64,000 bases of DNA from Diretmus argenteus (GCA_048569125.1 CM109057.1:34878381-34942380), one strand, 5' to 3'; counted from the first letter of the stretch, positions 45,682 through 63,510 are shown. Numbers and translations: made by a program. The notes: a model not told the origin generated them from the letters alone.

Positions 45682-45704
45682 TGGGGGGGGGGGGGGGGGG
45701 GTTC
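45682..45704. repeat. Poly-G homopolymer (~22 G)
   Basis: Direct read. Confidence 0.9.
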
Positions 45705-47123
45705 GGGTATTGGAAGATTAATCAGCCATCGGCTTTTTCCTGCCCCAAACTGAAGTTATTATATCGGCCTTTAAAAATCCACTATCGGTCGACCTCTACT
45801 TAGCACATTAAAACATGACAGTACATAACAAGAAGCGTGAACTTGGAAGAATGCCATGAAAAACTGACACGGATCCTTTCGTGATAATGGATCGGAGCGG
45901 ATCATTTGCATGGCTCTGGGCTGAAGGAACTGACAGAGGGAAGCAGTAACGCTGATAATCATCAGAGCTTTATTATTTGCAAATACTTTGGCCGTAACGA
46001 TAAAAAGATCTGACTTACTGTTTTGCTCTCTGCAGGGTCGACCTCTTGTCCTTCTCTGGCCTCCGCGGTGAGAGATTCACCTTCTTTCAGCGCTTCATCG
46101 TCCGACTGGCTCAGGAGCAAATACTACAAATATTAAAGAGAACTCAACATGCTTTAGACCCAGTGGATGTCGTCAGGTGTTGATTATGATGAATTAGAAT
46201 ATTGGGTCTGATATATTGGCTGAACCATCGCGCGTGTACACTTTCTATACCTGACTGTCCTTCTTCTGCTTTTGCGGACCGCGTCTTCCTCCTCGGTTCA
46301 TCTCCTGAAATGAAACCAGAACGGTTTCCTGAGTCACAAGGGCACATTGTGCAACGGCTCATCGATACACATCGGTTCCGTCGCGATAAGCTACCATCCG
46401 ATCGCGATTACGCAACCGCCGAGCGCTTACCTCCTCTGTGGGTCTGGCAGGAACCGTCGGAGTTTCTGCCCATCTCCCGTCTCTCTCCCTGGGGATCATG
46501 TTCTTGTTATTCTAGGAAGGACAAAGAAAAAAATGTAAAATGAGATCCGCCGTTTGAAAAGCGACACCCGCTCCTACAAAATGCACATTAAAGACAAATT
46601 ATGTACACAGAGGACATGAAAACTAGACGGGGTCCTTTACATCCGAATGATGAACTGAAGGATTTGTGTTATAATCAAACACGACAGACTGCAGTGATGT
46701 ACAGATAACCTACATATCACTTAAAATAGAAGCTCAACCCGCTACCTGAACGTCCTCAGCTCCTCTGGGGTTCAGTTTGTCTTTTGCTGCCGTCCCCTTC
46801 AGCTCCTGTGGAGAGACGTCAGACTTTAGCCGGGAGAATGTAGCACAGACAGAGAAGTCCGAATAGTCTCACGTGAACCACATGGCACTGCAAACCTCTT
46901 CTGTTGTTCTGGACGTTTCACTTCTGTCCTTCCTCTCTTGCTGGATCAGATTGCTTTTGACCTGGCAAGGACACGCACACGCAAACACACACGAGCTTGA
47001 GCTGGAGAGGGAGTTTTGACATTGGGCGGTCAGCATTTAAAGGGAGGCGAAGAGATGAAGAGGATGTGGTAGGTACAGTAGGTATAAAAGAGGAAGAGCC
47101 GAGAGGAGAGGTTATTTTTCAAG

Positions 47124-47126
<3 letters not shown>

Positions 47127-47177
<51 letters not shown>

Positions 47178-47178
47178 T
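47127..47178. repeat. (GT)n microsatellite, ~25 copies
   Basis: Direct read. Confidence 0.95.
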
Positions 47179-47989
47179 CACTGATGACGAAACAGCGATG
47201 CAAAAAATAGACTGACCGGCTTCGGCTTCTCCTCCCCTTGTTTCTCGTTCTCCTTGAGCGTCTCCTCAGTGTCTTTCTGAACAAACACAAAAAAAGGTAG
47301 CAGCTGTTACCCATCGTACGCTATAAACCAGGTTAACACAACACATCACTACGAGTTCAACTGAACCCTCTGGTTTTAGAAGCGCTATCACCACCAGCCA
47401 CCATCACCATGACTATCACCAGTCCACTCAGGAGGACTCAGGTCACCAACACCTCCCTCTAACACAAGCACCTGCCCCCAGCCAAGTTAAACACATTCAA
47501 CCACGTCTTTACTTTGTTTGCTGAGCGGAACGGATTCAGTTTGGACATGGCTCCAGCCATCGCGCTCTGAGGGGGAGGAACATATATTGTGAACACATAG
47601 TGTGAGATTCAGTCACTTAGAAACCCTTTGGAAACATGTTGTGGTCATACGCTTTCAAAAGCCACACTTCCTCGTTTCCCAATAGTTCCGCCCGGCGAGT
47701 GCAAAATGATCACAGTCATTCAAAGTTTCCCAGTTCGCTCTCAATATTTACTGCAAAGACAACAGAAATAAATGTCTCTAAAACGATACTCGTTTATTTT
47801 CTATTAATGCTACCTAATTAGCATCTGCAAGCTAGCTGACTCATCAAAACTATATAGAGGTGCAACGATTAGTCGATTAATTGATTAGTTGTCAACTATT
47901 AAATCAATAGCCAACTATTTTGATAATCGAATATTCGCTTTGAGTCATTTTTTAAAGAAAAAATGTCTCTAATTTCAGCTTCTCAAATG

Positions 47990-49645
47990 TGAATATGTTG
48001 TGGTTTATTTAGTTCTTTATGACAGTAAACTGAATATGTTGTGGTTTCTTTAGTCCTCTATGACAGTAAACTGAATATGTTGTGGTTTCTTTAGTCCTCT
48101 ATGACAGTAAACTGAATATGTTGTGGTTTCTTTAGTCCTCTATGACAGTAAACTGAATATGTTGTGGTTTCTTTAGTCCTCTATGACAGTAAACTGAATA
48201 TGTTGTGGTTTCTTTAGTCCTCTATGACAGTAAACTGAATATGTTGTGGTTTCTTTAGTCCTCTATGACAGTAAACTGAATATGTTGTGGTTTATTTAGT
48301 TCTTTATGACAGTAAACTGAATATGTTGTGGTTTCTTTAGTCCTCTATGACAGTAAACTGAATATGTTGTGGTTTCTTTAGTCCTCTATGACAGTAAACT
48401 GAATATGTTGTGGTTTCTTTAGTCCTCTATGACAGTAAACTGAATATGTTGTGGTTTCTTTAGTCCTCTATGACAGTAAACTGAATATGTTGTGGTTTCT
48501 TTAGTTCTCTATGACAGTAAACTGAATATGTTGTGGTTTCTTTAGTCCTCTATGACAGTAAACTGAATATGTTGTGGTTTCTTTAGTCCTCTATGACAGT
48601 AAACTGAATATGTTGTGGTTTCTTTAGTTCTCTATGACAGTAAACTGAATATGTTGTGGTTTCTTTAGTCCTCTATGACAGTAAACTGAATATGTTGTGG
48701 TTTCTTTAGTCCTCTATGACAGTAAACAGAATATGTTGTGGTTTCTTTAGTCCTCTATGACAGTAAACTGAATATGTTGTGGTTTCTTTAGTCCTCTATG
48801 ACAGTAAACTGAATATGTTGTGGTTTCTTTAGTCCTTTATGACAGTAAACTGAATATGTTGTGGTTTCTTTAGTCCTCTATGACAGTAAACTGAATATGT
48901 TGTGGTTTCTTTAGTCCTCTATGACAGTAAACTGAATATGTTGTGGTTTCTTTAGTCCTCTATGACAGTAAACTGAATATGTTGTGGTTTATTTAGTTCT
49001 TTATGACAGTAAACTGAATATGTTGTGGTTTCTTTAGTCCTCTATGACAGTAAACTGAATATGTTGTGGTTTCTTTAGTTCTCTATGACAGTAAACTGAA
49101 TATGTTGTGGTTTCTTTAGTTCTCTATGACAGTAAACTAAATATGTTGTGGTTTCTTTAGTCCTCTATGACAGTAAACTGAATATGTTGTGGTTTCTTTA
49201 GTCCTCTATGACAGTAAACTGAATATGTTGTGGTTTCTTTAGTTCTCTATGACAGTAAACTGAATATGTTGTGGTTTCTTTAGTCCTCTATGACAGTAAA
49301 CTGAATATGTTGTGGTTTCTTTAGTCCTCTATGACAGTAAACAGAATATGTTGTGGTTTCTTTATTCCTCTATGACAGTAAACTGAATATGTTGTGGTTT
49401 CTTTAGTCCTCTGACAGTAAACTGAATATGTTGTGGTTTCTTTAGTTCTCTATGACAGTAAACTGAATATGTTGTGGTTTCTTTAGTCCTTTATGACAGT
49501 AAACTGAATATGTTGTGGTTTCTTTAGTCCTCTATGACAGTAAACTGAATATGTTGTGGTTTCTTTAGTTCTCTATGACAGTAAACTGAATATGTTGTGG
49601 TTTCTTTAGTTCTCTATGACAGTAAACTGAATATGTTGTGCTTTC
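47990..49645. repeat. 41-bp satellite (tgacagtaaactgaatatgttgtggtttctttagtcctcta) in ~40 tandem copies, 1.65 kb
   Basis: Direct read. Units are very homogeneous, with occasional tt/cc and a/t variants. Confidence 0.95.
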
Positions 49646-52298
49646 TTTAGTAACGTTATGAAAGTTTCAACAAGTTCAAGACTTTTTAACACCACTTTGA
49701 ATGCAATTTAATACCAATTTCACTGCCATACTATCAAAAGAACAAGTAGTGATATCTACTATAGGTAAATAACAGTCTGAATGATGGTAAAAGTCCTAGA
49801 ATGTATTAACATTAAGGTCATAGCTTCTGTAGCTCCCGGTAGAAACACAAACACATAAAGTCTGATCATCAAAAACATCTGACATATTATTTCATATTCT
49901 GACAGACCCACTAAATATTTAAGATCTATGAACATTCAATTTAAGACTTTTTAAGACTCTCTGCGTTATCCTTTTTAGACTCGACAGTGAAACAGGAACA
50001 GTCATATATAGAGTCACAGCTCACCTGTTTGTGGCCTGATGACTTGTCACCGCTGGCAGGTGGATCCTCATAATTTGTTTGCTTTTCATACTGTCGGAAG
50101 AAGACACACGTACTATTAATGGAGTCATAACATCGAGCTTTCTCCATCACACCGCTTAGGTTCTCCAGTAGTCCTCTAGTCCCAGCAGACCCTCCTTACT
50201 TTGTCTGCAGAGCGAAACGGATTCAGCTTCGTCATGGCCTCAGACAGTTTATTCTGATATTAAACAAAACAGAAAAAAGAGACACAGAAAATGAGAACAT
50301 ATGCAGAAGTTAAACCGGCGACGGGAATAAATTAAAGTTGAACAAACCGGTTTGTGGCCGGGATGGTTCTCTCCGCTGGCTGACATCTCCTCGCTGTCCG
50401 AGTCGGAGTCCTTCTCCTGCAAGTAGAACCGACGTTTAAGTTTGTCAAGTGAGAAGAAAGGGGCGGGACTTAATAAGTGCAGACTTCTTCCTGCTCCCTT
50501 TCGGACATGCAACATTCAGCAGATGTTGTTCAGGTGAAGCGATTTTTGCTCACTGTTTTTCGCTGTATTATTCTATTATACTACTTTAATTTGGTTTTGT
50601 TATGTTGTTTTTTTACTCTTTTGTTTTTACATGATTGAAATAAATATCTACCTACCTACCTAAGAAGTAGTAATATAATAGTAATTCTAGCAGTAATAGC
50701 AGTATGACTACAGTAGCAAGGTATCAGCAGCATGAGAGAGAGAGCGAGAGAGAGAGCGAGAGAGAGATTAGTTATTATTATTTCTGCTTCAGCTCGCATC
50801 CAGTAACAGGAAAGACGAAGACGGCATGTGATGTGAAGTCGTTTCTAACCCAGGATGTAATGTTGGAATGCACTCCGCCTCTCACCTGTTTGTTAATAAA
50901 GAATGTGCTCTTCATAATTCCGCCCAAACCGTTCTGCAATAAGGCAAAGACAGACCTGTTCCCCCTGATCTAACTCATCACACCCTAAACCTGCCGTCAC
51001 GGGAGACCTCCCTCCTGACCACGAAGACAGGACAGATTTTAAAGTAATCACTTTAAACCTTTTTTTTTTTTTTGGATGCTTTTGTCTTTGCAGCCATGAA
51101 GTGAACATTAATATTTACGCCGTCAGTTCCAAATGCAGTCAAAAATATGTGTAACGTATCTGCAGGTTTCAACAAGTTAAATTTAAGACTTTTTAAGGCT
51201 TTTTTAAATGCAATTTAATACTAATTTCACTGCCATAGAACAAGTAGTGATATTTAGGTAAATAACAGTCTTAGAATTATTTGAAAAGTCCTAGAATGTA
51301 TTAACATTAAGTTACTTCAGTCTAATAAAGTCTTGACATCAAAAACATGACATATTATTTTCATATTTTTTAATCTGCTGACAGTTCCACACAATATTTA
51401 AGACCTATAAACATTAAATTTAAGACTTTTTAATACCTTTTATTGAGAATTTAAGACTTTTTAAGACCCCGTGGACACGCTGATGTGAAAGGAATAGAGA
51501 GATTTAGAGGCTTCACCTGTTTGGCTTTGGGCTTCTCTGTAGAAACGATTCTTTCCTTAGAGTCTGTTGAGTTTTCAGTCTTCTCCTTGTCCTAATGTAA
51601 CACAGCATTCAGTCAATACCAAGCACGAAAAGCATGATAAGCAACGTCCCAATACTGGTTTGTTTGCATGTATGATACAGGTTCTCTCTGACCTGAGTTG
51701 AGGACTGGAATGGATTCTTCAGGATCTTCCCCATCACTCCTCCCTGACAAGAGAAGTTCAATCCGTGGTTACGATAACTTCCTTTAGTCTTAAAGGATAA
51801 CTTTGGGATTTTTCAACCTGGACCCTATTTTCCCATGGCCGTGTGTCTACATGACTGATGGGAACAAGAATCTTTAAAATTGGTCCAGTATTGAGCGAGC
51901 GGTTATCTAAAAGATAAAAAACAACTATGGTTCGTTTTTGCACATTTTTCTGAATTGTGCCAACAAAATGTTACGCAACAATTCGTGCAGCTTTCATGTT
52001 GGATATAGACATGCTGTTGTTGTGGCTAGTTGTGCTCCAAATGGATGCTAACACAATAACAACAGACCGGATCATGCAAAAGGTAAAGAAAAACGTTTTA
52101 TTTATTATTTCTGTCAACAGAGCTTTTTTGCAATTTAACCCTTCGGGGTAAGTTCGCGCCCTAAATGTACGTCCTCTAAAAGCTCTGATTGTTGACAGGA
52201 TCCCTTTTTCTTTACCTTTACCTTTAATGCAGCACAGGTCCATGTGAACACGATACCCAGGTGGAGGGTGTAAACAAACAGTGGGCAGCATCTCTCAC

Positions 52299-52364
52299 CT
52301 TTGACGTCTTCTCTGTGAGGTTGTCATTGCTGGCGGAGAGTTCGCCGCCTGCAGACACGTCATC
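52299..52364 (-). CDS. Modular repetitive gene: type-B exon (DDVSAGGELSASNDNLTEKTSK)
   Basis: A 66-nt exon with acceptor ctgtttcag and donor AAG|gtgaga. Confidence 0.5.
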
Positions 52365-52511
52365 CTGAAACAGGGGGTGCAGCGTGTAAACAGGTTCTCA
52401 GGTTCTGAGTCGTGTTGAGGTGTTTTCAGGTAACAACAGTTCTCTCAAACTGGATACCGGTATGTAGGTTTTTGGAAGGAAATCCTTCAAAATAAAAGAC
52501 ATCCACCTTAC

Positions 52512-52580
52512 CTGAGACTGAGACTTAGCGCCTAAGGGCTTAGGTTTCCTGAACACGCCGCTAAAGATTCCTCCTTTCTC
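52512..52580 (-). CDS. Modular repetitive gene: type-A exon (EKGGIFSGVFRKPKPLGAKSQSQ)
   Basis: A 69-nt exon with acceptor ttttcccag and donor CAG|gtaagg. Confidence 0.5.
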
Positions 52581-52629
52581 CTGGGAAAACAACACGAGCA
52601 GTTAATTATGAGATGGGTGTCATTCTACA

Positions 52630-53290
52630 AGTTAAAGGATAACTTCGGTATTTTTCAACCTGGACCCTATTTTCCCATGGCCGTGTGTATAACTGACTCG
52701 TGGGAACAAGAATTGTTGAAATTAGTCCGGTATTGACCGAGCCCGTAGCTGCTAGCAGTTAGCGCTTAGCTTAGCTAATCCGTCTGAAACGCAAGGCTTC
52801 GGGGCAAGTGAGAACCTACATGTTTGTCCTCTAAAAGCGTTTTTTGTGTGTGCCACTGACAGACTCTGATTGTTGTTCTAAGTGTCTGACAGGATCCCGA
52901 CAGAAAACGTTTTTCTTTACCTTTCGCTTGATCCGGTCTGTTGTTATTGTGTTAGCATCCACTTGGAGCACAACTAGCCACAACAACAGAGTGTCCCTAT
53001 CCAACAAAGGTGTAGCTGCAACAAGAGGTCTCACTCCTCACGAAAGAAAAATGTTTTATTTCTCTGTCAGGATCCTGTCAGACACTTAGAACAACAATTG
53101 GAGCCTGTCAGTGGCAAAAAAACACGATTTTAGAGGATGCACATTTAGGTTCGCACTTGCCCCGAAGCGTTGCTTTTCAGAAGGATTAGCTAAGCTAAGC
53201 ACTAACCGCTAGCAGCTACGGACTCGGTCAATAATGGACCAATTTCAAAAATTCTGAGTTAATGGGAATGGGAAAATAGGATCCAGGTTG
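52630..53290. mobile_element. Palindromic MITE family copy (long inverted halves)
   Basis: The left arm aaaggataacttcggtatttttcaacctggaccctattttcccatggccgtgtg… is mirrored as a reverse complement in the right arm (…ggatccaggttgaaaaatacctaagtt). Other copies or partial copies lie at 25190-25460, 33060-33560, 51790-52200 and 58000-58700. Confidence 0.55.
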
Positions 53291-53346
53291 AAAAATACCT
53301 AAGTTTTCCTTTAAGAATTCAGCTGGTTGGTTTTAACAATCCTCAC

Positions 53347-53415
53347 CTTAGTGTTGTTACTCTCGGAAAGATTGTCATTGCTGCCTGAGAGATCACCGGG
53401 TGCAGACAGGTCATC
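53347..53415 (-). CDS. Modular repetitive gene: type-B exon (DDLSAPGDLSGSNDNLSESNNTK)
   Basis: A 69-nt exon with acceptor ctcattcag and donor AAG|gtgagg. Confidence 0.5.
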
Positions 53416-53500
53416 CTGAATGAGAGGAGCACACGCAGTCGGCCAGTTGAGATCAATCATCATCTATCAATGTAGCATCAATCAACACCACAACTCTCAC

Positions 53501-53572
53501 CTGAGACGCCGTCCTAACTCCCAAGGGCTTCTGGGGCTTTTTAAACATCCCACTGAAGATTCCTCCCTTCTC
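53501..53572 (-). CDS. Modular repetitive gene: type-A exon (EKGGIFSGMFKKPQKPLGVRTASQ)
   Basis: A 72-nt exon with acceptor ttttcag and donor CAG|gtgaga. Confidence 0.5.
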
Positions 53573-53694
53573 CTGAAAAAAGCAGACAATTTAAACCACC
53601 GATGGACAAAGATGTCGCCAAAACGAGTCAACCTCAGACATGTCATGTGACTTGAACGGCTGTTAGCAGAATTGATCCGGTAGATGAGACTCAC

Positions 53695-53760
53695 CTTAGT
53701 GTTGTTGTCTGTCAGACTGTCGTTACTGCCCGAGAGCTCATTGCCCACTAACAAATTATC
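53695..53760 (-). CDS. Modular repetitive gene: type-B exon (DNLLVGNELSGSNDSLTDNNTK)
   Basis: A 66-nt exon with acceptor gtgtttcag and donor AAG|gtgagt. Confidence 0.5.
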
Positions 53761-54376
53761 CTGAAACACACACACATAGAATTCAGCCTCGCTATGAAGT
53801 CACATTCAAAGGGTTCCCACTCTTTTTGAGAAATCTTTTTCCAGGACATTTCCAGGAGTTTTTCTTGACAATCCAGGACAGCACTTTGCTCACAAACAGT
53901 CATATAATTTACCGGTAGGTCTACTGTAATATCAACACACGCTTCTTCCGCCAGAAGAAACGGAGAACGAAAATAAGTGCAAAAGTGAGCAATTTATTGC
54001 TACACACAGTGAACGTTTATAGTGAATGTGATGAGGAGGCGCCGCCATCATACATGACATCATCACGTCAGAGAACCCAGAAGTTAAATAGACCGGCGTT
54101 TGACAATCGACTTTACCGAACACTGGAGCGATTAAAATTTTCCAGGACAACATAGATTTCTTTCCAGGATATTTGGTCATTTTAGTCAATTTTCCAGGTT
54201 TTCCACGACTGGAAATTTAGTCTCTGAATTTCCAGGTTTTCCAGGAGGAGTGGGAACCCTGCATTCATCTAACACTCTCATCCAGAGCAAGCACCGATCA
54301 TAGTGAACAAAATACTCCAGAAAAAACTGCAATAACACATTTTGGAGTTTATATTATATAAAAGATGATGTTTCAC

Positions 54377-54448
54377 CTGTGAAGACCTGCGCTCGTGACC
54401 CGGTTTCGGTGCTCGTCTCAATATCCCGCTCAGCACACCTGTTTTCTC
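54377..54448 (-). CDS. Modular repetitive gene: type-A exon (EKTGVLSGILRRAPKPGHERRSSQ)
   Basis: A 72-nt exon with acceptor tattcag and donor CAG|gtgaaa. Confidence 0.45.
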
Positions 54449-54739
54449 CTGAATACAAACATGGAAAGAAAAGTTTAGTTTCAGATACTAAAGTATTGTT
54501 CAAACGATGCAGCTGTCAGACGGGCGGAGATGGAACTGAACGCTTCACACAAAGGGCAGCGCCGCAAATCTGCTGATGCCTGCAGGTCAACACGCCAAAC
54601 ACATTCTCTATCCCACACACACACAATGAGCCAGTTGTATCCAGTTACCAGGGGTGGGAATCACCTGGGACTTCACGGTACGATATTATCACCATACTTG
54701 TATCACGATATGGGGAGTTTTGCGATACATTAAGTATTG

Positions 54740-55090
54740 CGAGTCAAGGTCGTAGGTTCGATCCTTGGGGTTGCTACCGGCTTGGCTGGGCGTCCCTACA
54801 GGCGCAATTGGCCACGTTTGCGGGTGGGAAGCCGGACACGGGGATTTGTCCTGGTCGCTGCACTAGCACCTCCTACTGGTCGGTCGGGGCACCTGTCGGT
54901 GGGGGGCGGAGCTGGGGAGGATAACGTGTTCCTCCGCACGCGCTATGCCTTCCCGGTGAAACTCCTCACCGGCTGGTGTAAAAGAAGCGGCTGGCGACTT
55001 CACACGTGTCGGAGGAGGCATGTGTTTGTCTACACCCTCCCCAGGCCGACAGTGGGAGGTGGAACAGCGACCGGGACCGCTTAGGCAGTA
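54740..55090 (+). mobile_element. tRNA-related SINE-like element (5' truncated)
   Basis: It begins with a B-box-like gtaggttcgatccttgg and continues into a ~300-bp GC-rich body unlike the sequence around it. Confidence 0.35.
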
Positions 55091-55946
55091 CAGGGGGATT
55101 GGATATGTACAATTGGGAGAAAATGGGGTAAAAAAATAAATAAATGCAAGTCAATTTATTACGATATATCACAATTATTTTAAGTAAAATAAAATGTAAA
55201 ATGACAATTAAAATTGAAGTCGTACCCCTACAGGTGTCAACGTGACGCCTCGAAATAAGAAGCAAGAAGTGAATCAATTTAACTCAAACATTTTTTTTTG
55301 ATTTGATCCAGTTCTACTGAATTTCAAAATAAAATTGATTTCTAACTTCCGATCTGTCACAGTGCAGTTGTTTTAACACTCGACACCTACAGGATTTTGG
55401 CAGCAATGAACTTTTGCATCGCTCCAGCTACAAAATGAAGAAAAAATAGGTTTCATAATGTGTGTAACACAATAGATAAAGTATCGATATTGTATTGCGG
55501 AAGAAAGTATCATGTTACTATGCTGTATCGATATCCCCCCCCCCCCCCACTCCTACCAGTTACATCATATGATTTACACTGATGTTTGAAAATGGCTAAT
55601 ATTAAGGAAACACTTGTTTAACGTGCTTTTAGTGTAAAATCATTCATAATTTTCAGATAAATAAACATCTGTTTTGCTACTATCTTGGATCTGCCAATTG
55701 ATACAACACTATTACATTTTTTGATCTAAACATCAGGCGTCAGGTAGGTGATGTGTTTTATGTTTCGACCAACAACAGCAGGTCGTTTGGAATCAACAGA
55801 AGAAGATGACAAGTGACCGCCACCATGACTGAACACACAAAGAAAAGAGTAACTCAAACTCCATCAACAGGAACGAAGACGTCACAGCGCCGGACCCACC
55901 AAAGATGAGGCCAAAACTAATCAAACTCAGGCATGTCATGTGGTTG

Positions 55947-55979
<33 letters not shown>

Positions 55980-56107
55980 TTTAAAAAACTTTATTTAACC
56001 AGAGAGATCACACAACAGTTGCATAAATTAAAAGAAATCAAAATGTAAAACATGTTTTGTTGACTAAAAGGTCTGTTAACAGAGTGTACTTGGTTGATGG
56101 GACTCAC

Positions 56108-56164
56108 CTTAGTGTCTGACAGACTGTCGTTACTGTCCGAGAGCTCACTGCCCAACAAATTGTC
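56108..56164 (-). CDS. Modular repetitive gene: type-B exon (DNLLGSELSDSNDSLSDTK)
   Basis: A 57-nt exon with acceptor gtgtttcag and donor AAG|gtgagt. It is a tandem duplicate of 53695-53760. Confidence 0.5.
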
Positions 56165-56581
56165 CTGAAACACACAAAACTAGAATTCAACCTCTTTATT
56201 GTCACTATACCAGCGGTACAATGAACATATGTGTGACTCTCTCAACAAAGGACTACACAACAATCATAAATAAAAAGAAATCTAAATAATTAAATAGTTT
56301 AAAAATAGTTAAAAACACCATCAGGGCAACGTTAAAACAGCAGCAGACATTGGGATTAAAGTGTTCAGTCTAAAATGTGCATAGTTCACTTGTCTGTACA
56401 AATAATAACAAATAGCAGTCATCTCACTCTCTCGTCCAGAGCGACTTACAGTACAACAGTAGAAAAAAGTTCCATTTCTTGATCGCACAACATTATAAGT
56501 AGAGCGAGTAGAGAAAGGTCACGATCATAGCGAACAAAATACTCCAGAAAGAAGGAGTTTATATGAAAGATCCGGTTTCAC

Positions 56582-56653
56582 CTGCGAAGGCTTGCGCTCG
56601 TGACCCGGTTTAGGTGATCGTCTCAGTATCCCGCTCAGCACACCGCTTTTCTC
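56582..56653 (-). CDS. Modular repetitive gene: type-A exon (EKSGVLSGILRRSPKPGHERKPSQ)
   Basis: A 72-nt exon with acceptor tgtatccag and donor CAG|gtgaaa. It is a tandem duplicate of 54377-54448. Confidence 0.45.
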
Positions 56654-56747
56654 CTGGATACAAAAACGCGGAACGGAAAGTTTCCTTTCAGATACTAAAG
56701 GATTTCCAGTGGTTATGAAAGAACGCAGAGCAGAAAGTAAAACTCAC

Positions 56748-56822
56748 CTTAGATGATGTGCTGCTGTTGTCCGGTAAACTGTCTCTACTGCCAGACAGAT
56801 CCGTGTTGTGCAGAGCGATGGA
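56748..56822 (-). CDS. Modular repetitive gene: type-B exon (SIALHNTDLSGSRDSLPDNSSTSSK)
   Basis: A 75-nt exon with acceptor tgttcccag and donor AAG|gtgagt. Confidence 0.45.
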
Positions 56823-56879
56823 CTGGGAACATCGGAGACAATACATAACAAAACAACACATTTGTGTCTCTACACCTCT

Positions 56880-57560
56880 ACTGGTTGCATGTAGGGATGC
56901 ATGATATTGACATTTTTGGCCGATATCCAATAACCAATTATTTTCATGGTCATATCGACCGATACCGATACTGATATTGCATATTGATATCTGTCCGATA
57001 ATGATACTGCATTTTTAAGTAATTATCGTCCGATACGGATATGATGACCGGTATATTGTCCATCCCTACTATCTATCTATCTGTCTGTCTGTCTGTATCT
57101 ATCTATCTATCTATCTGGGATGCACAATACTGTAATTTTGGCCAATATCCGATAACCGATTATTTCCATGGTCATATTGACCAATACCGATACTGATATT
57201 GCATATTGATATCTTTCCAATGACGATAATGCATTTTTAAGTAATTATCGTCCGATACCGATATGATGACCAATATATCGTCCATCCCTACTATCTATCT
57301 ATCTATCTATTAGGGATGCACAATATTGTAATTTTGGCCGATATCCGATTATTTCCATGGTCATATCGACCGATATCTATACTGATACCAATATTTGATT
57401 TGATTTGAATTTATTTGACATACTCATAAGAATAAAAACATCCACCAACAAACAACAACACACTTTTCTCAGAGCATATTGATATCTGTCCGATAATGAC
57501 TATGCATTTTTAAGCAATTGTCAGCCGATACCGAGATAATGACCGATACATCGCGCCTCC
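56880..57560. repeat. ~190-230-bp macro-tandem repeat x3, with (CTAT/CTGT)n junctions
   Basis: The unit gggatgca(c/t)…attttggccgatatccgat…ttccatggtcatatcgaccgataccgatactgatattgcatattgatatc…cgataatga…gcatttttaagtaattatcgtccgataccgatatgatgaccg…ccctactatctatc recurs at 56896, 57118 and 57313. Confidence 0.8.
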
Positions 57561-57639
57561 CTAGTTGCATGTATAGGAAAAGGTAAACAATCACAACACA
57601 ACAACAAACAGGACGTATAGTCAGTTCTAGCGGACTCAC

Positions 57640-57693
57640 CTGAGCGGGCTTGGTGCTCTTCTTCAGGATCCCTTTAAACATGCCTCCTTTCTC
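57640..57693 (-). CDS. Modular repetitive gene: type-A exon (EKGGMFKGILKKSTKPAQ)
   Basis: A 54-nt exon with acceptor tgtttcag and donor CAG|gtgagt. Confidence 0.5.
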
Positions 57694-57802
57694 CTGAAAC
57701 ATCACGACGCTGGACTAAATCACTATAGCTGATTCATGAAGCTTGAATCAGAGAAACAAACCCAAACCCTGAGAAATCCCACGGCTGCTTCAGGAAACTC
57801 AC

Positions 57803-57871
57803 CTTGGTGTTGTTGTTTTCAGTCAGACTGTCGTTGCTCTTTGAAAGCTCACCGCTCACTCTCAGATTGTC
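57803..57871 (-). CDS. Modular repetitive gene: type-B exon (DNLRVSGELSKSNDSLTENNNTK)
   Basis: A 69-nt exon with acceptor tttcacag and donor AAG|gtgagt. Confidence 0.5.
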
Positions 57872-57999
57872 CTGTGAAACCAACGTCTATGTGAGTAAAA
57901 GTAGAATGAAACAGTGTAAATCTGTGGTGTCGTTCCCTGTATGTCCATTTTAGAAAATAAAGGTCACCCACATGAGCACGGCCTCTTATTTTGAAGTAT

Positions 58000-58700
58000 T
58001 ATTAAAGGATAATTCCGGTCATTTTCAAAGTGAATCTATTTCCTCATGTTCGTGTGTGTTTGTGACTGATGGGAACAAGAGTTTTTGAAATTGGTTCAGT
58101 TTTAAGGTAGCGGTTAGTAGTAGTTTGCGTCAGAGCTAATGGGTCGATGTTACGTCTATGGGGCAACAAAATCTAGTCAATGTACATCTCTAAAAGCGTT
58201 TTTTTTGCCACTCACGGGCTCCGATTGTTGTTCTAAGTGTCTCACGTCCCTACAGAGAAATAAAACGTTTTTCTTTACCTTTGGCTTGATCCGGTCTTAG
58301 CTTCTACAACGAGCCAGCGTCACGCTACAAACAGCGAACAAAGATCTAGTAGTGAGAAGACGTCTCCCTCCTGTCTCACTATTTCACAACGGGATTTCTC
58401 GAGCTCAACGAGAAATATCGTTCTGAAATTTCACGACGAGTGAGACCTCTTCTTGTTACTAGATATTTGTTGGATGTTTACAGCCTTTGAAGCTGGCTCC
58501 TTGTAGAAGCTAAGACAAAAAAAAGACCGGATCAAGCGAAAGGTAAAGAAAAACGTTTTTATTTCTCTGTAGGGATCGTGAGACACTTAGAACAACAATC
58601 GGAGCTTGTGAGTGGCAAAACAAAATGCTTTTAGAGATGTACATTGACTAGATTTTCTTGCCCTATAGACGTAACGTTGACTCACTTAACTCCGACGCAA
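58000..58700. mobile_element. Palindromic MITE family copy
   Basis: It has the same two-arm inverted structure (aaggataattccggtcattttcaaagtg… / …cactttgaaaatgaccggaattattc at 59340-59375 belongs to an adjacent partial copy). It is homologous to 52630-53290. Confidence 0.45.
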
Positions 58701-59582
58701 ACTACTAACCGCTTCCTTAAAACTGTTCCAATGTGGAGGGTAGAATTAAACAGTTAAAACTGACCATGATCTATAAGATTTTACATGATATGTGTCCTAA
58801 GTATTTTTTAAATTATTTTCTGTACGTCCGGGACTCACATAGCATGAATACAAGGGCTAGTGTAGATGATTTGAAGCTACCTAAGCTGAAGAGTAAAACG
58901 GGAAGAAGTACATTCCTCTCCAGCGGGGGGAGGAATGGAACAAAATTCCCAGAGAAATAAAATCCGCCCAGTCCTTGAATGGGGTCAAAAATCGACTAAA
59001 AAAACGGTTGGTGAATAACTTAGTTTAGAAAGAAGTCCGGACTGATGTAATGATTGTGTCTTGTATGTATTATTGTATGTTACTTGTTTGTGAGTGACTG
59101 TCCATGGGTGTCAGGCGAGAGGAGAAGCACTTTTTGTGCATGTGGCTCCTTTACTCTGCCTGCCCTACCTTGGGACCGCAATGGAAATACGTTTCAGGAC
59201 TTTCTTGCGCTATCCTGATGTATGTAAATACTGTATGCATTTGTGTATTGTATTTTATGATGTCAAATAAAATCTATCTATCTATCTATCTTCAAAAAAT
59301 TTTGTTCCCATCAGTCACAAACACACAGGAACATGAGGACATAGATTCACTTTGAAAATGACCGGAATTATTCTTTAAGGTATGTTAGGTAAGTTTGAAA
59401 ATAATGCTACCTTCAGCCCTCCCTTCAAGACCCCTCCCCCAAAATATGAACATGCACTAATATCAGGTAGGTAGACAGACAGGTAGGTAGACAGGTAGGT
59501 AGGTAGACAGACAGGTAGTCCGTCCGATCATTTCATTCGGACCGAATGAAATGATTGGACGTAGTTTTTCCGGTCCTGCGCC

Positions 59583-60390
59583 CACTAGAGCAGTGGTTCT
59601 CAACCTTTTTCATATCAAGGACCATCGTTTAGTCGTCATTAGAGCCACGGACCATTTGATGAGATTTTGCCTCTCAGACCCAAAACTTATAATATTTTGT
59701 TATTGTTGGATCAGATTTAGTCAGAATTCCAACGCTGTATTGATGTGGGAGAGAGATAACAGTCAAACTTTGATCAAAATAACAATTCTTCTACATTCTC
59801 TAATGGTGTAAACTTCTTGTAAATTAAGTAATGCAGATGTTTAATAATAATTTAATTTAACAAATGAAACCAAATGGACCCGTACGGGTCCATTTGGTTT
59901 CATTTGTACACTCTCAAGAGTTAAATTACAGACCTATAAGGGTCCATTTGGTCCCCAACTGTCTTTAGTTGGGATTCATTTGGTCCCCAACTGTCTTTAG
60001 TTGGGGTCCATTTGGTCCCCAACTGTCTTTAGTTGGGGTCCATTTGGTCCCCAACTGTCTTTAGTTGGGGTCCATTTGGTCCCCAACTGTCTTTAGTTGG
60101 GGTCCATTTGGTCCCCAACTGTCTTTAGTTGGGGTCCATTTGGTCCCCAACTGTCTTTAGTTGGGGTCCATTTGGTCCCCAACTGTCTTTAGTTGGGGTC
60201 CATTTGGTCCCCAACTGTCTTTAGTTGGGGTCCATTTGGTCCCCAACTGTCTTTAGTTGGGGTCCATTTGGTCCCCAACTGTCTTTAGTTGGGGTCAATT
60301 TGGTCCCCAACTGTCTTTAGTTGGGGACCACCTGGGACCCCCTCAAGGACCACTGGTGGTCCCCGGACCACTGGTTGAGAACCACTGCTT
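59583..60390. mobile_element. Element with the same TIR family (CAGTGGTTCTCAACC…GGTTGAGAACCACTG) carrying a 32-bp minisatellite. It is flanked by ~170-bp direct repeats at 59380-59560 and 60396-60545.
   Basis: The TIRs lie at 59587-59601 and 60361-60377. Between them is a 32-bp tandem repeat (ggtccatttggtccccaactgtctttagttgg) in ~12 copies. The flanking direct repeats are aggtatgttaggtaagtttgaaaataa…ggtaggtagacagacaggtagtccgtcc…gaatgaaatgattgga. Confidence 0.5.
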
Positions 60391-60760
60391 TAAAGGTATG
60401 TTAGGTAAGTTTGAAAATAAGCTACCTTCAGCCCTCCCCCCAAACGTGAACGTGCACTATAATTAGGTAGGTAGACAGACAGGTAGTCCGTCCAATCATT
60501 TTATTCAGTCCGAATGAAATGATTGGAAGTAGTTTGTCCGGTCGCTATCAGGATGGCCAGAACAATTCAACAAATATAACGAAAAGTGTCTCTGAACAAA
60601 ATGCCCTATCCAGCCTTAAAATGACTTACTTAGTAATCAAAGATATTCGAGTGGCAAGCACCTAAATAATATTCATTTTTAATCATGAATATTCAATAGT
60701 GAGTTTTACCTTCACGACAGAAAATATTTGATCAATCTAGGTGCTACTAAAACACATCAC

Positions 60761-60832
60761 CTGTAGTTGGAGTGAGGGCTCTGCGGATTTGGAGGATTTC
60801 TTGAACATCCCACCGAACATCGCTGCCTTACT
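60761..60832 (-). CDS. Modular repetitive gene: type-A exon (SKAAMFGGMFKKSSKSAEPSLQLQ)
   Basis: A 72-nt exon with acceptor tcgttcag and donor CAG|gtgatg. Confidence 0.45.
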
Positions 60833-61344
60833 CTGAACGAGGAGCGAACAAGACACAACTCAAAAACTTACTTCAGCCTCAAAACAATTACAGAGCACTT
60901 CAACCCCAAAAATTGCTGTTGGCCTCATAAACATACAGCAGATAAAACATTATAACAGTGGTGGAACGTTCACTGCCCTCTCCTCTAATCAGAAATTAGA
61001 GCATCGTGTGTCAATCCCTTAATCTGTCACGCTGATCAACAGCTCTCTGGAGGTTTAACTGGAAAATATGAGCTTATATATGAGGATATATTTTCATGTA
61101 TGTTCTCTAGTCCACAAAGTCAGATTACCATGCTGATTGAGTCCGATTTAAAAGCAACCTTAACCTTAACCTTTAACACAACCATATCAGTATCAGCTTT
61201 CTAAAACCAATATCGGTCGAACCCCTGGTGAATAATGTTCATTTAGACAGATTTAGGTCAGGTGGGTTAACTGAGTTACACCCCTGGAGAGAAAGAGAAG
61301 GGGGGAAACACCAAAACAAATAAAAAACATCCTCCTCTACTCAC

Positions 61345-61410
61345 AGCGACTCCTCCACCTCCTCCTCCTCCATCACAGTCCAGGTCCACATCCAGGTTCT
61401 CGTACCGGTC
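61345..61410 (-). CDS. Modular repetitive gene: exon 2 (DRYENLDVDLDCDGGGGGGGVA)
   Basis: A 66-nt exon with acceptor ccacctcag and donor GCT|gtgagt. The frame is open. Confidence 0.4.
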
Positions 61411-61510
61411 CTGAGGTGGTTTGGTCGTAACAGACATTTAAACAGATGATCAAACGAGTTTATTATCCACAGATCCAACTTTCCAAACAAGAAGTTCAGC
61501 GTCGACTCAC

Positions 61511-61560
61511 CATGATGACGTCACTCTGTTGTTTACGTCTGTTGTGGTGACCTCGCGCTG
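61511..61560 (-). CDS. Modular repetitive gene: first exon (5' UTR ending in the start codon ATG at 61511-61513)
   Basis: On the minus strand the sequence reads ...GACGTCATCATG|gtgagtcgac, so the ATG sits immediately before a consensus donor. A (CTT)n-rich putative promoter lies at 61.6-61.8 kb. Phase 0 continues into 61345-61410. Confidence 0.35.
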
Positions 61561-62099
61561 CTTCTAGATGAAAACAGATTTAATGTTCGATATCAGCCCG
61601 ATGATGTTGACAGTTTCGGCTCTATATTCCCTCTGAACTCTCTCCGGTGTGAAGTTGTGAGATCCCGCTTGTTAAAGGACTCGGTCGGACACTTCACTTC
61701 CCCCCGGATCACATGAAGAACCTGAAACCGGCGGAACGAGTTCTTCTTCTTCTCCTTCTTCTTCTTCTTCTCTTCACCTATAGATGTTGCTGCCAGAAAG
61801 GGGCGTGGCCTCTGCGTTTACCTGGGAGCTCATGTTACTGCTGACTTCAGCCTGATGCTGCCTTCAAGTGCTCCTCGTAAACTCCCAACATGATTCAGGG
61901 TTTACTGTAGTGTTGGGCGATCCATGAACGAGTCGTTCTTTTTGAACGAATCTTTTGGGCGATCCGGTTCATACGATTCATAACTGCGAGTGGATCCACA
62001 TTGATTTGCACATGCGCAAATGAACATTATCCGTGATCCGTGTGACTCGAAAAGATTAGTGGATTTATTTGCCCAATGCGCAACACTTCCGTGATCCTA

Positions 62100-63510
62100 C
62101 AGGTGTAGCGGCCCAAAATATACCCCCCTAGTCCAGATTATACCCCCCTAGTCCAGACTATACCCTCCCCTAGTCCAGACTATACCCCCCTAGTCCAGAT
62201 TATACCCCCCTAGTCCAGATCATACCCCCCTAGTCCAGACTATACCCCCCCTAGTCCAGATCATACCCCCTAGTCCAGACTATACCCCCCTAGTCCATCT
62301 TATACCCCCCTAGTCCAGATTATACCCCCCTAGTCCAGACTATACCCTCCCCTAGTCCAGATTATACCCCCCTAGTCCAGATCATACCCCCCTAGTCCAG
62401 ACTATACCCCCCCTAGTCCAGATCATACCCCCTAGTCCAGACTATACCCCCCTAGTCCAGATTATACCCCCCTAGTCCAGACTATACCCCCTAGTCCAGA
62501 TAATACCCCCCTAGTCCAGACTATACCCTCCCCTAGTCCAGACTATATCCCCCTAGTCCAGATTATACCCCCCTAGTCCAGATCATACCCCCCTAGTCCA
62601 GACTATACCCCCCTAGTCCAGATCATACCCCCTAGTCCAGACTATACCCCCCTAGTCCATCTTATACCCCCCTAGTCCAGATCATACCCCCTAGTCCAGA
62701 CTATACCCCCCTAGTCCAGACTATACCCCCCTAGTCCAGACTATACCCCCCTAGTCCAGATTATACCCCCCTAGTCCAGACTATACCCCCCCCTAGTCCA
62801 GATCATACCCCCTAGTCCAGACTATACCCCCCTAGTCCATCTTATACCCCCCTAGTCCAGATCATACCCCCTAGTCCAGACTATACCCCCCTAGTCCATC
62901 TTATACCCTCCTAGTCCAGAATATACCACCCCTAGTCCAGAATATACCCCCGTAGTCCAGAATATACCACCCCTAGTCCAGAATATACCCCCCTAGTCCA
63001 TCTTATACCCTCCTAGTCCAGAATATACCACCCCTAGTCCAGAATATACCCCCGTAGTCCAGAATATACCACCCCTAGTCCAGAATATACCCCCCTAGTC
63101 CAGATTATACCCCCTAGTCCAGAATATACCCCCGTAGTCCAGAATATACCACCCCTAGTCCAGAATATACCCCCCTAGTCCAGAATATACCCCCCTAGTC
63201 CAGATTATACCCCCTAGTCCAGAATATACCCCCTAGTCCGGAATATACCCCCCTAGTCCAGATTATACCCCCCTAGTCCAGAATATACCCCCTAGTCCAG
63301 ATTATAACCCCTCTAGTCCAGATTATACCCCCCTAGTCCAGAATATACCCCCCTAGTCCAGATCATACCCCCTAGTCCAGAATATACCCCCCTAGTCCAG
63401 ATCATACCCCCCTAGTCCAGATTATACCCCCCTAGTCCAGAATATACCCCCCTAGTCCAGATCATACCCCCTAGTCCAGAATATACCCCCCTAGTCCAGA
63501 TCATACCCCC
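62100..63510. repeat. 20-bp satellite (ccctagtccagattataccc, variants gac/gat/gaa/atc) in ~70 tandem copies, 1.4 kb
   Basis: Direct read. The array ends in a poly-C run at ~63498-63512. Confidence 0.95.

Follow-up and report, generated by a model that had tools for sequence, protein, structure and literature searches.

What does a gene built from many short, alternating exons encode, and where does it end? A stretch of Diretmus argenteus DNA of 64,000 nucleotides (GCA_048569125.1 CM109057.1:34878381-34942380), hereafter the window, was described in an earlier note, made from the sequence alone, as carrying on its minus strand a spliced gene at 46000-61600 with at least 14 exons of two motif classes, type A and type B, and a disordered product of no recognizable family. 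The present analysis identifies the locus as a member of a known, annotated gene family with an uncurated repeat module, and not as a new kind of gene. The A/B mini-exons very probably make up the first two-thirds, encoding a disordered region, of a conserved teleost ApoL-domain gene, a reading that includes a proposed scaffold role for that part of the protein.

Exon Organization and Coding Frame

On the minus strand, 34 coding exons extending from 61513 to 39951 are joined into a single 3009-nt open reading frame (ORF) with one terminal stop, encoding 1002 aa in a locus of 21.5 kb. Every intron of this model is bounded by AG/GT, and exons 1-31 are all in phase 0; the chance of 30 in-phase exons in a row is approximately (1/3)^30 if exon lengths are random with respect to 3. 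All coordinates given previously were reproduced, as were the two alternating, phase-keeping exon classes: the 27 exons within 46000-61600 all have an AG acceptor, a GT donor, and a length divisible by 3. The extent of the gene had been drawn too short, and coding runs on to 39951. Exons 1-31, which are short phase-0 cassettes, encode the N-terminal ~640 aa, and the last exons encode the C-terminal ApoL domain. The start was correctly predicted: the ATG at 61513-61511 closes exon 1, and the protein continues with exon 2 (61410-61345) and exon 3 (60832-60761). Orthologue N-termini read M-(D/E)-R-Y, and exon 2 contains no in-frame ATG beside its acceptor. Exons 3-14 form six A+B pairs, in which the basic type A has the consensus EKGG(I/M/V)FxG(M/I)FKK and the acidic, Ser-rich type B has the consensus D(D/N)LSxxxELSxSNDSLSExNNTK. 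Against the count of at least 14 given earlier, 12 exons are clear members of these classes, and two more (15 and 17) are degenerate A-like exons. The first 14 exons are as follows.

61511-61513, minus: exon 1, coding end is the ATG alone, then donor GTGAGT; 5' UTR reaches upstream
61345-61410, minus: exon 2, DRYENLDVDLDCDGGGGGGGVA, conserved acidic N-terminus; cDNA contigs L001 and L002 align at 61411-61356
60761-60832, minus: exon 3, type A, SKAAMFGGMFKK... (SKAAMFGGMFKKSSKSAEPSLQLQ), net charge +3; tblastn module match
57803-57871, minus: exon 4, type B, DNLRVSGELSKSNDSLTENNNTK; tblastn module match and cDNA blocks
57640-57693, minus: exon 5, type A, EKGGMFKGILKKSTKPAQ, net charge +4; tblastn module match and cDNA blocks
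56748-56822, minus: exon 6, divergent type B, SIALHNTDLSGSRDSLPDNSSTSSK; tblastn module match and cDNA blocks
56582-56653, minus: exon 7, type A, EKSGVLSGILRRSPKPGHERKPSQ, copy 1 of duplicated pair; tblastn module match, duplicated block
56108-56164, minus: exon 8, type B, DNLLGSELSDSNDSLSDTK, copy 1 of duplicated pair; tblastn module match, duplicated block
54377-54448, minus: exon 9, type A, EKTGVLSGILRRAPKPGHERRSSQ, copy 2 of duplicated pair; tblastn module match, duplicated block; missing from the Centroberyx orthologue
53695-53760, minus: exon 10, type B, DNLLVGNELSGSNDSLTDNNTK, copy 2 of duplicated pair; tblastn module match, duplicated block
53501-53572, minus: exon 11, type A, EKGGIFSGMFKKPQKPLGVRTASQ, net charge +4; tblastn module match and cDNA blocks
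53347-53415, minus: exon 12, type B, DDLSAPGDLSGSNDNLSESNNTK, net charge -4; tblastn module match and cDNA blocks
52512-52580, minus: exon 13, type A, EKGGIFSGVFRKPKPLGAKSQSQ; tblastn module match and cDNA blocks
52299-52364, minus: exon 14, type B, DDVSAGGELSASNDNLTEKTSK; tblastn module match and cDNA blocks

The remaining exons include NPF-containing and acidic exons, among them the two KLNPFRSA(D/N)K exons (50253-50200 and 47566-47513) already recognized in the earlier note, and lead to the ApoL end.

51693-51743, minus: exon 15, degenerate A-like, first NPF motif, GGVMGKILKNPFQSSTQ
51517-51591, minus: exon 16, DKEKTENSTDSKERIVSTEKPKAKQ; cDNA blocks
50886-50933, minus: exon 17, degenerate A-like, NGLGGIMKSTFFINKQ
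50348-50416, minus: exon 18, acidic, Ser/Asp-rich, EKDSDSDSEEMSASGENHPGHKP, net charge -5; cDNA blocks
50200-50253, minus: exon 19, NPF exon, NKLSEAMTKLNPFRSADK; NPF present in 43/49 aligned orthologues
50025-50090, minus: exon 20, YEKQTNYEDPPASGDKSSGHKQ; cDNA blocks
47513-47566, minus: exon 21, NPF exon, SAMAGAMSKLNPFRSANK; cassette left out in annotated isoforms of other species
47217-47276, minus: exon 22, KDTEETLKENEKQGEEKPKP, weak donor GTCAGT; cDNA blocks
46896-46961, minus: exon 23
46746-46805, minus: exon 24
46431-46511, minus: exon 25
46251-46304, minus: exon 26, basic, net charge +4
46019-46105, minus: exon 27, acidic, SDDEALKEGESL..., net charge -7; acceptor at 46105 backed by orthologues
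44873-44929, minus: exon 28, basic NPF exon, TKVKKPKRHNPFMPRAAAK, net charge +7
43880-43960, minus: exon 29, acidic, APSDDEGLKEDESL..., net charge -7, paralogous to exon 27
43605-43655, minus: exon 30, basic NPF exon, ARVRKPKKHNPFMPRVK, net charge +7; NPF present in 48/49 aligned orthologues
41349-41426, minus: exon 31, NEGGNKSLFDRLEDL..., final member of the phase-0 run
41201-41240, minus: exon 32, DLEGLMEWWNTVE-
41047-41098, minus: exon 33
39951-40893, minus: exon 34, ApoL domain and stop codon; region at least 90% identical over 48 teleost orthologues

Identity of the Encoded Protein

The product, previously held to be unassignable, matches the Pfam ApoL family (PF05461) at residues 695-948 with an E of 5e-36; the ApoL-coding terminal exons lie at 41426-39951, beyond the range first given. 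Protein searches recovered full-length teleost orthologues (best E 1e-218); these proteins of ~1000 aa share the layout of the Diretmus product and carry, in dozens of teleosts, the annotation 'apolipoprotein L1' (NCBI) or 'Apolipoprotein L, 1' (UniProt/Ensembl). A deposited 'apolipoprotein L1 [Diretmus argenteus]' (P0043, 591 aa) is 100% identical over exons 21-34; it begins at the Met of exon 21, so that exons 1-20, including all A/B modules, are missing from it, and it places the acceptor of exon 27 18 nt upstream (46123), adding YLLLSQ. The module family yields 110 matches among 1.84 billion representative proteins, and all strong matches with a checked name are teleost.

The disordered character proposed for the modular product is predicted for residues 1 to ~618, which in an AlphaFold2 model of an 81%-identical orthologue have no secondary structure and a pLDDT <50. 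It does not hold for the ApoL domain that follows: helices are confined to 620-984 in this model, the ApoL part of which is of low confidence (pTM 0.29), and 62 residues in exon 34 (739-800) form a hairpin without D, E, K, or R. The protein is thus not wholly disordered and comprises a disordered arm and a very conserved helical, hydrophobic-hairpin membrane domain.

Putative Function of the Disordered Arm

Exon charges along the arm alternate strictly between basic (type A, +3 to +4; NPF exons, +7) and acidic (type B, -1 to -4; SDDEGLKE exons, -7). Five NPF motifs are observed against 0.053 expected by composition, an approximately 100-fold excess, and 0 of 20,000 shuffles reached three. The motifs are present in 18-48 of 49 orthologues, the remainder being mostly gaps at cassette exons, and conservation reaches at least 90% at N386, F388, N625, P626, and F627. 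NPF motifs are ligands of cytosolic proteins. The hairpin may anchor the protein in a cytoplasm-facing membrane, a signal peptide being absent (no hydrophobic core in exon 2 or the N-terminus MDRYENLDVDLDCDGGGGGGG), and the arm would present short linear motifs as a multivalent scaffold that splicing can tune. The five NPF motifs are predicted to recruit trafficking proteins that have EH domains (Eps15/intersectin/EHD class), a proposal for and against which we see even prospects. More tentatively, the GG-hydrophobic-F-x-G-hydrophobic-F-KK clusters of type A might interact with a repeated partner or with acidic membranes, an interaction that the B blocks, acidic and rich in Ser, might tune via charge or phosphorylation. 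The hydrophobic moment of the type A core (0.25) is not higher than that of shuffled sequences (0.28 +/- 0.14), which speaks against a simple amphipathic helix.

Conversely, the arm could have no specific partners and behave as a blocky polyampholyte, with exon blocks of +4/-4 and +7/-7, serving as an entropic spacer or mediating charge-based self-association or condensation at the membrane; conservation would then be due not to binding motifs but to splicing signals and the patterning of charge. The charge alternation and the predicted disorder of the whole arm are consistent with this explanation, as are the wide differences in module number between lineages that keep the gene and the lack of any Pfam family matching the modules or the arm, even at E <=10 (WH2 and MARCKS included). 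However, specific residues are conserved, not charge alone: G, F, S, and D positions within the module reach at least 90%, FGGMFKK, ELSKSNDSL, and KLNPFRSA are kept from eels through percomorphs, and NPF tripeptides are in ~100-fold excess. We therefore consider a partnerless arm possible but unlikely, and prefer the motif scaffold.

Transcripts and Isoforms

Transcript evidence was drawn from Logan RNA-type contigs of relatives. One contig (L001, 4159 nt) has an uninterrupted 992-aa ORF, which starts with MERYDNLDLDLECEGGG, continues into the A/B modules, and reaches the ApoL domain, so that in relatives the corresponding exons are joined to this domain; when L001 and L002 are compared with the window by blastn, the aligned blocks end where exon borders were predicted, and in the cDNA they follow directly on one another. 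In other species, isoforms from one and the same species are set apart by precisely one exon (an 18-aa NPF exon, a 24-aa A exon, or a 26-aa exon) and have zero mismatches in the remainder. The ApoL domain is missing from some models of relatives and one RNA contig (P0014, P0034, P0038), and part of the gene's output may therefore be a module-only product.

These observations also bear on whether the A/B exons (1-20 or 1-22) belong to a gene of their own, or to a short isoform that is mostly independent, with an ApoL gene beginning at exon 21. The start of P0043 at the exon 21 Met would fit such a division, as would the several ApoL-less models from other species and the termination of L002/P0014 by reading into the conserved intron 22 (46962-47216, minus, 255 nt), which is retained in L002 at 72-81% identity and would end the protein in VSLFFASLFRHQ*. 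Nevertheless, L001 and dozens of independent gene models place modules and ApoL in a single ORF, exon 21 has a good acceptor with an unbroken phase-0 frame, and its Met is internal in all orthologues; two transcription units are improbable. Still less credible is a secreted acidic phosphoprotein of the biomineralization type, as suggested by the repetitive Ser/Asp/Glu-rich composition and by pipeline names, among them 'protein starmaker-like' and also 'dentin matrix acidic phosphoprotein 1-like': the N-terminus lacks a signal-peptide core, the C-terminal part is a membrane-hairpin domain, NPF motifs are known ligands of cytosolic proteins, and the pipeline names are arbitrary (also titin, piccolo, neurofilament, and midasin).

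Intron Content and Tandem Duplication

The satellites and MITE-like palindromes attributed to the introns were recovered; the palindromes listed are examples.

47990-49651: 41-bp satellite, 40.6 copies, intron 20
59940-60330: 32-bp satellite, 12 copies, intron 3
52632-53316: palindromic MITE-like element, intron 12, arms 88-94% complementary
58002-59378: nested palindromic MITE-like elements, intron 3, arms 88-94% complementary

Although introns so rich in such elements might suggest that the A/B pieces are dispersed repeat or transposon fragments open by chance, tblastn with module consensus peptides matched the predicted minus-strand exons exclusively and in order, with no module-like sequence in the introns or plus strand of this gene, and the AG/GT-flanked, in-phase exons have the same order as orthologous proteins and as the cDNA contigs, so that this reading, doubted from the outset, is rejected.

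The tandem A+B duplication noted earlier (56653-56582 with 56164-56108 against 54448-54377 with 53760-53695) is borne out by collinear blocks at 56704-55900 and 54497-53607, which are 83-97% identical over exons and intron flanks. The exon 9+10 pair is a lineage-specific tandem duplication that took in intron sequence; the Centroberyx orthologue lacks it, leaving Diretmus with one A+B pair more. Tandem copying of A+B pairs is how the gene expanded. Because every module exon is in phase 0 at both ends, neither A+B duplication nor single-exon skipping ever breaks the frame.

Comparison With Known Systems

Centroberyx affinis isoform X2 (P0001, 986 aa) and the Polymixia lowei protein (P0002) represent the same gene as the Diretmus locus; P0001 is 81% identical overall and at least 90% in the ApoL part. 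The teleost 'apolipoprotein L1' proteins are collinear with it in the acidic N-terminus, A/B pairs, NPF exons, acidic/basic NPF pairs, ApoL domain, and C-terminal SSDEDEIDRIKKAIKKDIENREYV. Module number ranges from 1 to 10 by lineage in apol1-type proteins, and exons 9+10 are the additional pair of Diretmus. A tandem paralogue ('apold1a' in NCBI, 'si:rp71-1g18.13' in UniProt) is adjacent in the window (~34.6-17.9 kb) in the same orientation. It shares the A/B module family (at most 17 matched stretches) and an ApoL domain but differs in its N-terminus (MEQCL..KKKPKPPKPP), a far less similar ApoL domain, and a long Lys/Glu-rich tail. It has no NPF motifs; since it carries A/B modules without NPF, the two motif kinds are separable.

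Mammalian APOL1-6 and APOLD1 resemble the Diretmus protein in their Pfam ApoL domain and in a double hydrophobic hairpin that is flexible and charge-free. According to PMC11726835, this hairpin is the hallmark of the ApoL family, that of APOLD1 likewise having no acidic residues; the 62-residue Diretmus hairpin agrees with this. Human APOL1 is a rapidly evolving protein with a signal peptide, whereas the ApoL domain described here is nearly invariant among teleosts. To our knowledge, and in PMC11726835, no mammalian member with a modular disordered N-terminal arm of ~640 aa has been described. The name projected onto these fish genes originates from zebrafish apol1 (NP_001025309.1 / ENSDARG00000007425), which is used in nephropathy models and is reported to be widely expressed and required for the glomerular filtration barrier (PMC4492502, PMC4854397). 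Zebrafish apol1 is described as a 2.6-kb locus, in contrast to 21.5 kb and 34 exons in Diretmus. No otophysan protein is found among the best 120 matches to the disordered arm, a clupeiform query included, so that zebrafish may lack the long arm or carry a strongly diverged form of it.

The EH-domain ligands epsin, Numb, synaptojanin, rabenosyn-5, and MICAL-L1 resemble the Diretmus protein, a putative ligand, in having several NPF motifs in a disordered region; those of Diretmus are strongly over-represented and conserved. The C-terminal EH domains of EHD proteins favor an acidic context after NPF; the Diretmus context is basic (K-L-NPF-R, K-H-NPF-M-P-R). Finally, tropoelastin, with its hydrophobic and cross-linking exons, the titin PEVK region, and fibrillar collagens are genes of short in-phase exon cassettes that alternate in character. 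The Diretmus locus is like these in that one symmetric-phase exon is one module, exons are duplicated in tandem, and cassettes are much skipped, but their sequences are unrelated, and they are extracellular or sarcomeric elastic and structural proteins rather than arms of a membrane hairpin.

Structure of Gene 1

Gene 1, the apol1-type gene, is encoded by in-frame mini-exons that were found by reading the minus strand from 45000 to 61700 and then locating each putative exon by script. This procedure reproduced all coordinates given in an earlier note on this DNA, whose reading of a modular gene was correct, the observation being real and well described; the gene is present at 46000-61600, as that note stated, and its extent had to be revised to include sequence down to 39951. 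Seven further exons were obtained by mapping P0043, the deposited Diretmus argenteus 'apolipoprotein L1', onto the window.

Coding features of gene 1
61513-61511, minus strand: coding end of exon 1 (ATG), GTGAGT directly after
after the ATG exon, minus strand: exon 2, DRYENLDVDLDCDGGGGGGGVA
next, minus strand: exon 3, SKAAMFGGMFKK..., with a series of short exons after it
44929-44873, minus strand: further exon from P0043
43960-43880, minus strand: further exon from P0043
43655-43605, minus strand: further exon from P0043
41426-41349, minus strand: further exon from P0043
41240-41201, minus strand: further exon from P0043
41098-41047, minus strand: further exon from P0043
40893-39951, minus strand: further exon from P0043

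The 27 coding exons within 46000-61600 are 48-87 nt each, save the 3-nt coding end of exon 1, and all their lengths are divisible by three; AG and GT borders are found throughout the gene. The complete model comprises 34 exons and 3009 nt with one stop, which is terminal. Phase 0 is kept by all of exons 1-31, other phases occurring only at the last three junctions, and the chance probability of 30 in-phase exons in a row is approximately (1/3)^30. Briefly, exons 3-14 are six pairs of a basic type A exon and an acidic Ser-rich type B exon (the A/B module), degenerate A-like sequence makes up exons 15 and 17, and exons 19 and 21 encode KLNPFRSA(D/N)K.

P0043 (591 aa) is 100% identical to the assembled protein across exons 21-34, begins at a Met within exon 21, and carries no A/B modules. 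On this alignment, the deposited model is truncated by 20 coding exons, corresponding to approximately 420 aa and all A/B modules. Furthermore, its exon 27 acceptor is placed 18 nt upstream of the orthologue-supported one (window 46105-46123), which inserts YLLLSQ and is probably an annotation error.

Family Identity and Orthologues

The product, which the earlier note had not recognised, is assignable as an ApoL-domain protein with annotated teleost orthologues. Residues 695-948 of the assembled protein match Pfam PF05461 (ApoL) with a score of 125 bits (curated cut-off, 25.9; E 5e-36), and residues 739-800 form a 62-residue stretch free of D, E, K, and R, which varies little or not at all among 48 teleost orthologues. 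The hallmark of the ApoL family is a double hydrophobic Gly/Ala/Thr-rich hairpin with transmembrane potential (PMC11726835), to which, at the level of sequence, the charge-free stretch corresponds; gene 1 is a family member by domain and by hairpin. In the hairpin region, residues 743-835 (window ~40700-40420) gave PDB sequence matches below significance (E 0.017) to ClyA-family pore-forming toxins, namely to the hydrophobic head hairpin of NheB (6tao) and MakE (6w08), and these weak matches may hint at the mode of membrane insertion of the ApoL hairpin.

With the assembled 575 aa as query, 139 proteins were returned. Of these, the best 120 bear teleost names or no name, and most are ~1000 aa in length and carry a Pfam ApoL domain at the C-terminus. 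The top matches were Centroberyx affinis 'apolipoprotein L1 isoform X2' (E 1e-218) and Polymixia lowei (2e-204); the teleost orthologues ranged from E 1e-218 to 1e-100 at query coverages of 86-100%, with identities of 57-81% (48 sequences). By these matches, gene 1 is orthologous to many teleost proteins annotated 'apolipoprotein L1'. In 42-48 teleosts spanning eels to percomorphs, almost all positions of the ApoL part reach at least 90% identity. In the same range of 42-48 teleosts, the arm, a predicted disordered N-terminal region of ~640 aa preceding the ApoL domain, keeps the N-terminal motif M-x-RY-x-LDLDLECDGG; FGGMFKK, ELSKSNDSL, KLNPFRSA, KKPKxHNPFMPR, and the C-terminal SSDEDEIDRIKKAIKKDIENREYV are likewise kept.

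Direct reading of the MDRYENLDVDLDCDGGGGGGGVA N-terminus, which is acidic and Gly-rich, found no hydrophobic core of a signal peptide. By this reading the product differs from human APOL1, a secreted, trypanolytic protein with an N-terminal signal peptide. Its putative orthology to human APOL1 or APOLD1 is suggested by database names.

ApoL Loci Neighbouring Gene 1

Further ApoL-type loci lie downstream of gene 1 on the same strand.

ApoL-type features downstream of gene 1
34615-17925, minus strand: gene 2, an ApoL-domain gene of the 'apold1a' / 'si:rp71-1g18.13' type, directly downstream of gene 1
near 34615-34562, minus strand: gene 2 N-terminal exon, MEQCL..KKKPKPPKPP-like
29617-29543 and 28572-28507, minus strand: examples of gene 2 A/B-type module exons
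21546-21073 and 19097-17925, minus strand: gene 2 ApoL exons
7595-4087, minus strand: third ApoL-domain gene
7595-7407, minus strand: upstream exon of the third gene, resembling a gene 2 exon
~6035-5571 and 4779-4087, minus strand: third-gene ApoL exons, 61-65% identical to the apold1a-type domain
2363-2325 and 1318-1265, minus strand: exon-like sequences matching gene-1-type exons, TKVEKPKRHNPFV (basic NPF exon) and a GGNKSLFD-type exon

The A/B module family is common to genes 1 and 2, and gene 2 additionally has a long Lys/Glu-rich tail. The matches at 2363-2325 and 1318-1265 suggest a fourth, apol1-like copy running off the window start. Long reverse-transcriptase-like ORFs on the plus strand (26109-27845 and 35334-36254), in or beside gene 2 introns and on the opposite strand, look by eye like LINE-type fragments. 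At 11746-12243, a tandem repeat keeps long frames open on both strands, with TIPWPVVVER / GQGMVLSTTT as the recurring units; rather than a gene, this is probably a minisatellite lying between genes 2 and 3.

Distribution, Splicing, and Evolution of the Modules

A dispersed repeat or transposable element as the source of the modules, which the earlier note had deemed unlikely, is ruled out by tblastn of the whole window on both strands with peptides representing the consensus of each exon type (A, B, NPF, and acidic), because these matched only the predicted gene 1 exons, in order, and a few exons of the downstream paralogues, all on the minus strand, with no module matches on the plus strand or outside exons. 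Beyond the window, a 46-position profile from 42 A+B units gave only 110 matches at E <= 1e-3 among 1.84 billion representative proteins, and the strong matches whose names were looked up were all teleost. Matched stretches were most numerous, up to 17, in 1100-1700-aa proteins of the 'apold1a' / 'si:rp71-1g18.13' paralogue, and in a moray eel the two module-bearing genes have adjacent locus tags. Nematode matches (P0162, P0164, P0186, and P0217) were weak, covered 10-20 profile positions of the A half only, and were taken as low-complexity coincidence. Residues 1-659 matched no Pfam family at E <= 10, including WH2 and MARCKS; SPAR_C, reported for the paralogue fragment P0090 with a summed 39.9 bits and no single significant stretch, was treated as a repeat artefact. 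On these searches, the A/B mini-exons represent a repeat family that is uncurated and restricted to teleosts.

In related fish, joining of the exons is seen in two intron-less Logan contigs from their sequencing runs. L001 (4159 nt) has an unbroken 992-aa ORF that opens with MERYDNLDLDLECEGGG, traverses the modules, and reaches the ApoL domain, and L002 (1747 nt) encodes 517 aa. Their blastn blocks on the window stop where the predicted exons do and adjoin one another in the cDNA; in L002, for instance, 1331-1387, 1410-1459, 1457-1519, and 1514-1630 correspond to exons 19, 20, 21, and 22, respectively. Furthermore, NCBI isoforms from the same species differ by exactly one module exon, such as STVVGAMSKLNLFRSANK, QKASLFSGIFKKSSKSKELLPSAQ, or NVKVGALTKLNPFRSAPK, with zero mismatches elsewhere, so the mini-exons behave as cassettes. 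Intron 22 (255 nt, 46962-47216) has a weak GTCAGT donor and is retained in L002 (1514-1742), to which it is 72-81% identical; read-through gives alike short tails in the two species, VSLFFASLFRHQ vs VSLFSTSLMSHH. The retained intron may be a regulated one, or it may mark a conserved short isoform that lacks ApoL.

The array has also changed by duplication. The regions round exons 7+8 and 9+10 share five collinear blocks of 83-97% identity (56704-55900 vs 54497-53607), which reach into flanking and internal intron sequence. The duplication of this A+B pair is lineage-specific, because Centroberyx lacks the exon 9+10 pair, and in other fish the apol1-type proteins have 1 to 10 copies by an HMM from the six Diretmus pairs. 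A second duplicated pair type, exons 27+28 and 29+30, consists of acidic SDDEGLKE and basic KKPK(R/K)HNPFMPR exons. The locus thus illustrates cleanly, in a natural setting, that symmetric phase-0 mini-exons permit repeat-number change by tandem duplication as well as cassette skipping. The intronic satellites and palindromic MITE-like elements described in the earlier note are present. A 20-bp satellite, TATACCCCCCTAGTCCAGAT, with 69.5 copies at 62119-63511, lies ~600 bp upstream of the gene 1 start codon and accounts for the pronounced negative GC skew seen over 62-64 kb.

Putative Function of the N-Terminal Arm

In the AlphaFold2 model of the 81%-identical Centroberyx affinis orthologue P0001 (49 aligned sequences), residues 1-~618 have no secondary structure and pLDDT <50, and helices are found only from 620 to 984; the pTM of 0.29 makes the model adequate to show disorder and too poor for a fold search. 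The arm contains 17.7% K+R, 16.4% D+E, 17% S+T, and 9% G, and its net charge alternates by exon, A exons carrying +3 to +4, B exons -1 to -4, and exons 27-30 -7, +7, -7, and +7. An amphipathic or ALPS-like helix in the A core was rejected, since the muH of EKGGIFSGMFKK was 0.25 against 0.28 +/- 0.14 for shuffles, 56% of which were equal or higher. The A core resembles basic-aromatic membrane-binding clusters, and putative membrane binding through it, the weak part of the model, is regarded as doubtful.

NPF is an established EH-domain ligand. Five NPF tripeptides occur in the arm against 0.053 expected, and none of 20000 shuffles reached three; these motifs are conserved wherever their exon is present, lie in a region predicted to be disordered, and are absent from the gene 2-type paralogue. 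Because the N-terminus has no signal-peptide-like features, the ApoL hairpin is taken to anchor the protein and the arm to face the cytosol, where its NPF motifs would recruit Eps15/intersectin/EHD-type proteins. The main rival is that the arm is a polyampholyte spacer without partners or a condensate former. Recruitment of EH proteins is preferred to this because NPF, an EH-domain ligand, is over-represented and conserved, and we hold it with about even confidence. More tentatively, the module family, if confined to two tandem ApoL-domain genes, might provide an otherwise ordinary membrane-hairpin protein with a splice-tunable multivalent cytosolic arm, which in the apol1-type gene would couple putative ApoL membrane remodelling to the EH-domain endocytic/recycling machinery via the conserved NPF motifs. 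If so, the ApoL family would gain a concrete trafficking partner, and fish 'apol1' would not be a simple counterpart of human APOL1; the NPF/EH part, if it holds, offers a testable link between ApoL and endocytic trafficking.

Naming, Zebrafish, and Comparison with Known Systems

What databases name 'apolipoprotein L1' in most teleosts is a protein of ~1000 aa with an ApoL domain that is near-invariant from eels to percomorphs, and we know of no mammalian counterpart described for its N-terminal arm; caution is therefore due when the name is cited in favour of equivalence with human APOL1. Clupeiforms, eels, salmonids, and acanthomorphs are present among the best 120 matches to the arm, and no otophysans (cypriniform, siluriform, or characiform) are found among the best 120 matches to the Diretmus or clupeiform arm query. 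Otophysi, zebrafish included, may have lost the long arm, or it may be strongly diverged there. A 2.6-kb locus is described for the zebrafish 'apol1' studied in nephropathy (PMC4492502; PMC4854397), and this gene may lack the arm. The published zebrafish morpholino start, M-E-W-L-D-D-F, was considered as an internal Met of a long protein, a link that is not claimed; against it, the Alosa orthologue starts MEWGGRYETLD, and otophysans are absent from the best matches to the arm.

Gene 1 belongs to an already annotated gene family, and no finding on it overturns current understanding. The novelty is limited to the corrected Diretmus argenteus gene model, the uncurated teleost-restricted module, and the testable NPF/EH hypothesis. 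Tropoelastin, titin PEVK, and the collagens are its nearest analogues in exon architecture and have no sequence relationship to gene 1.
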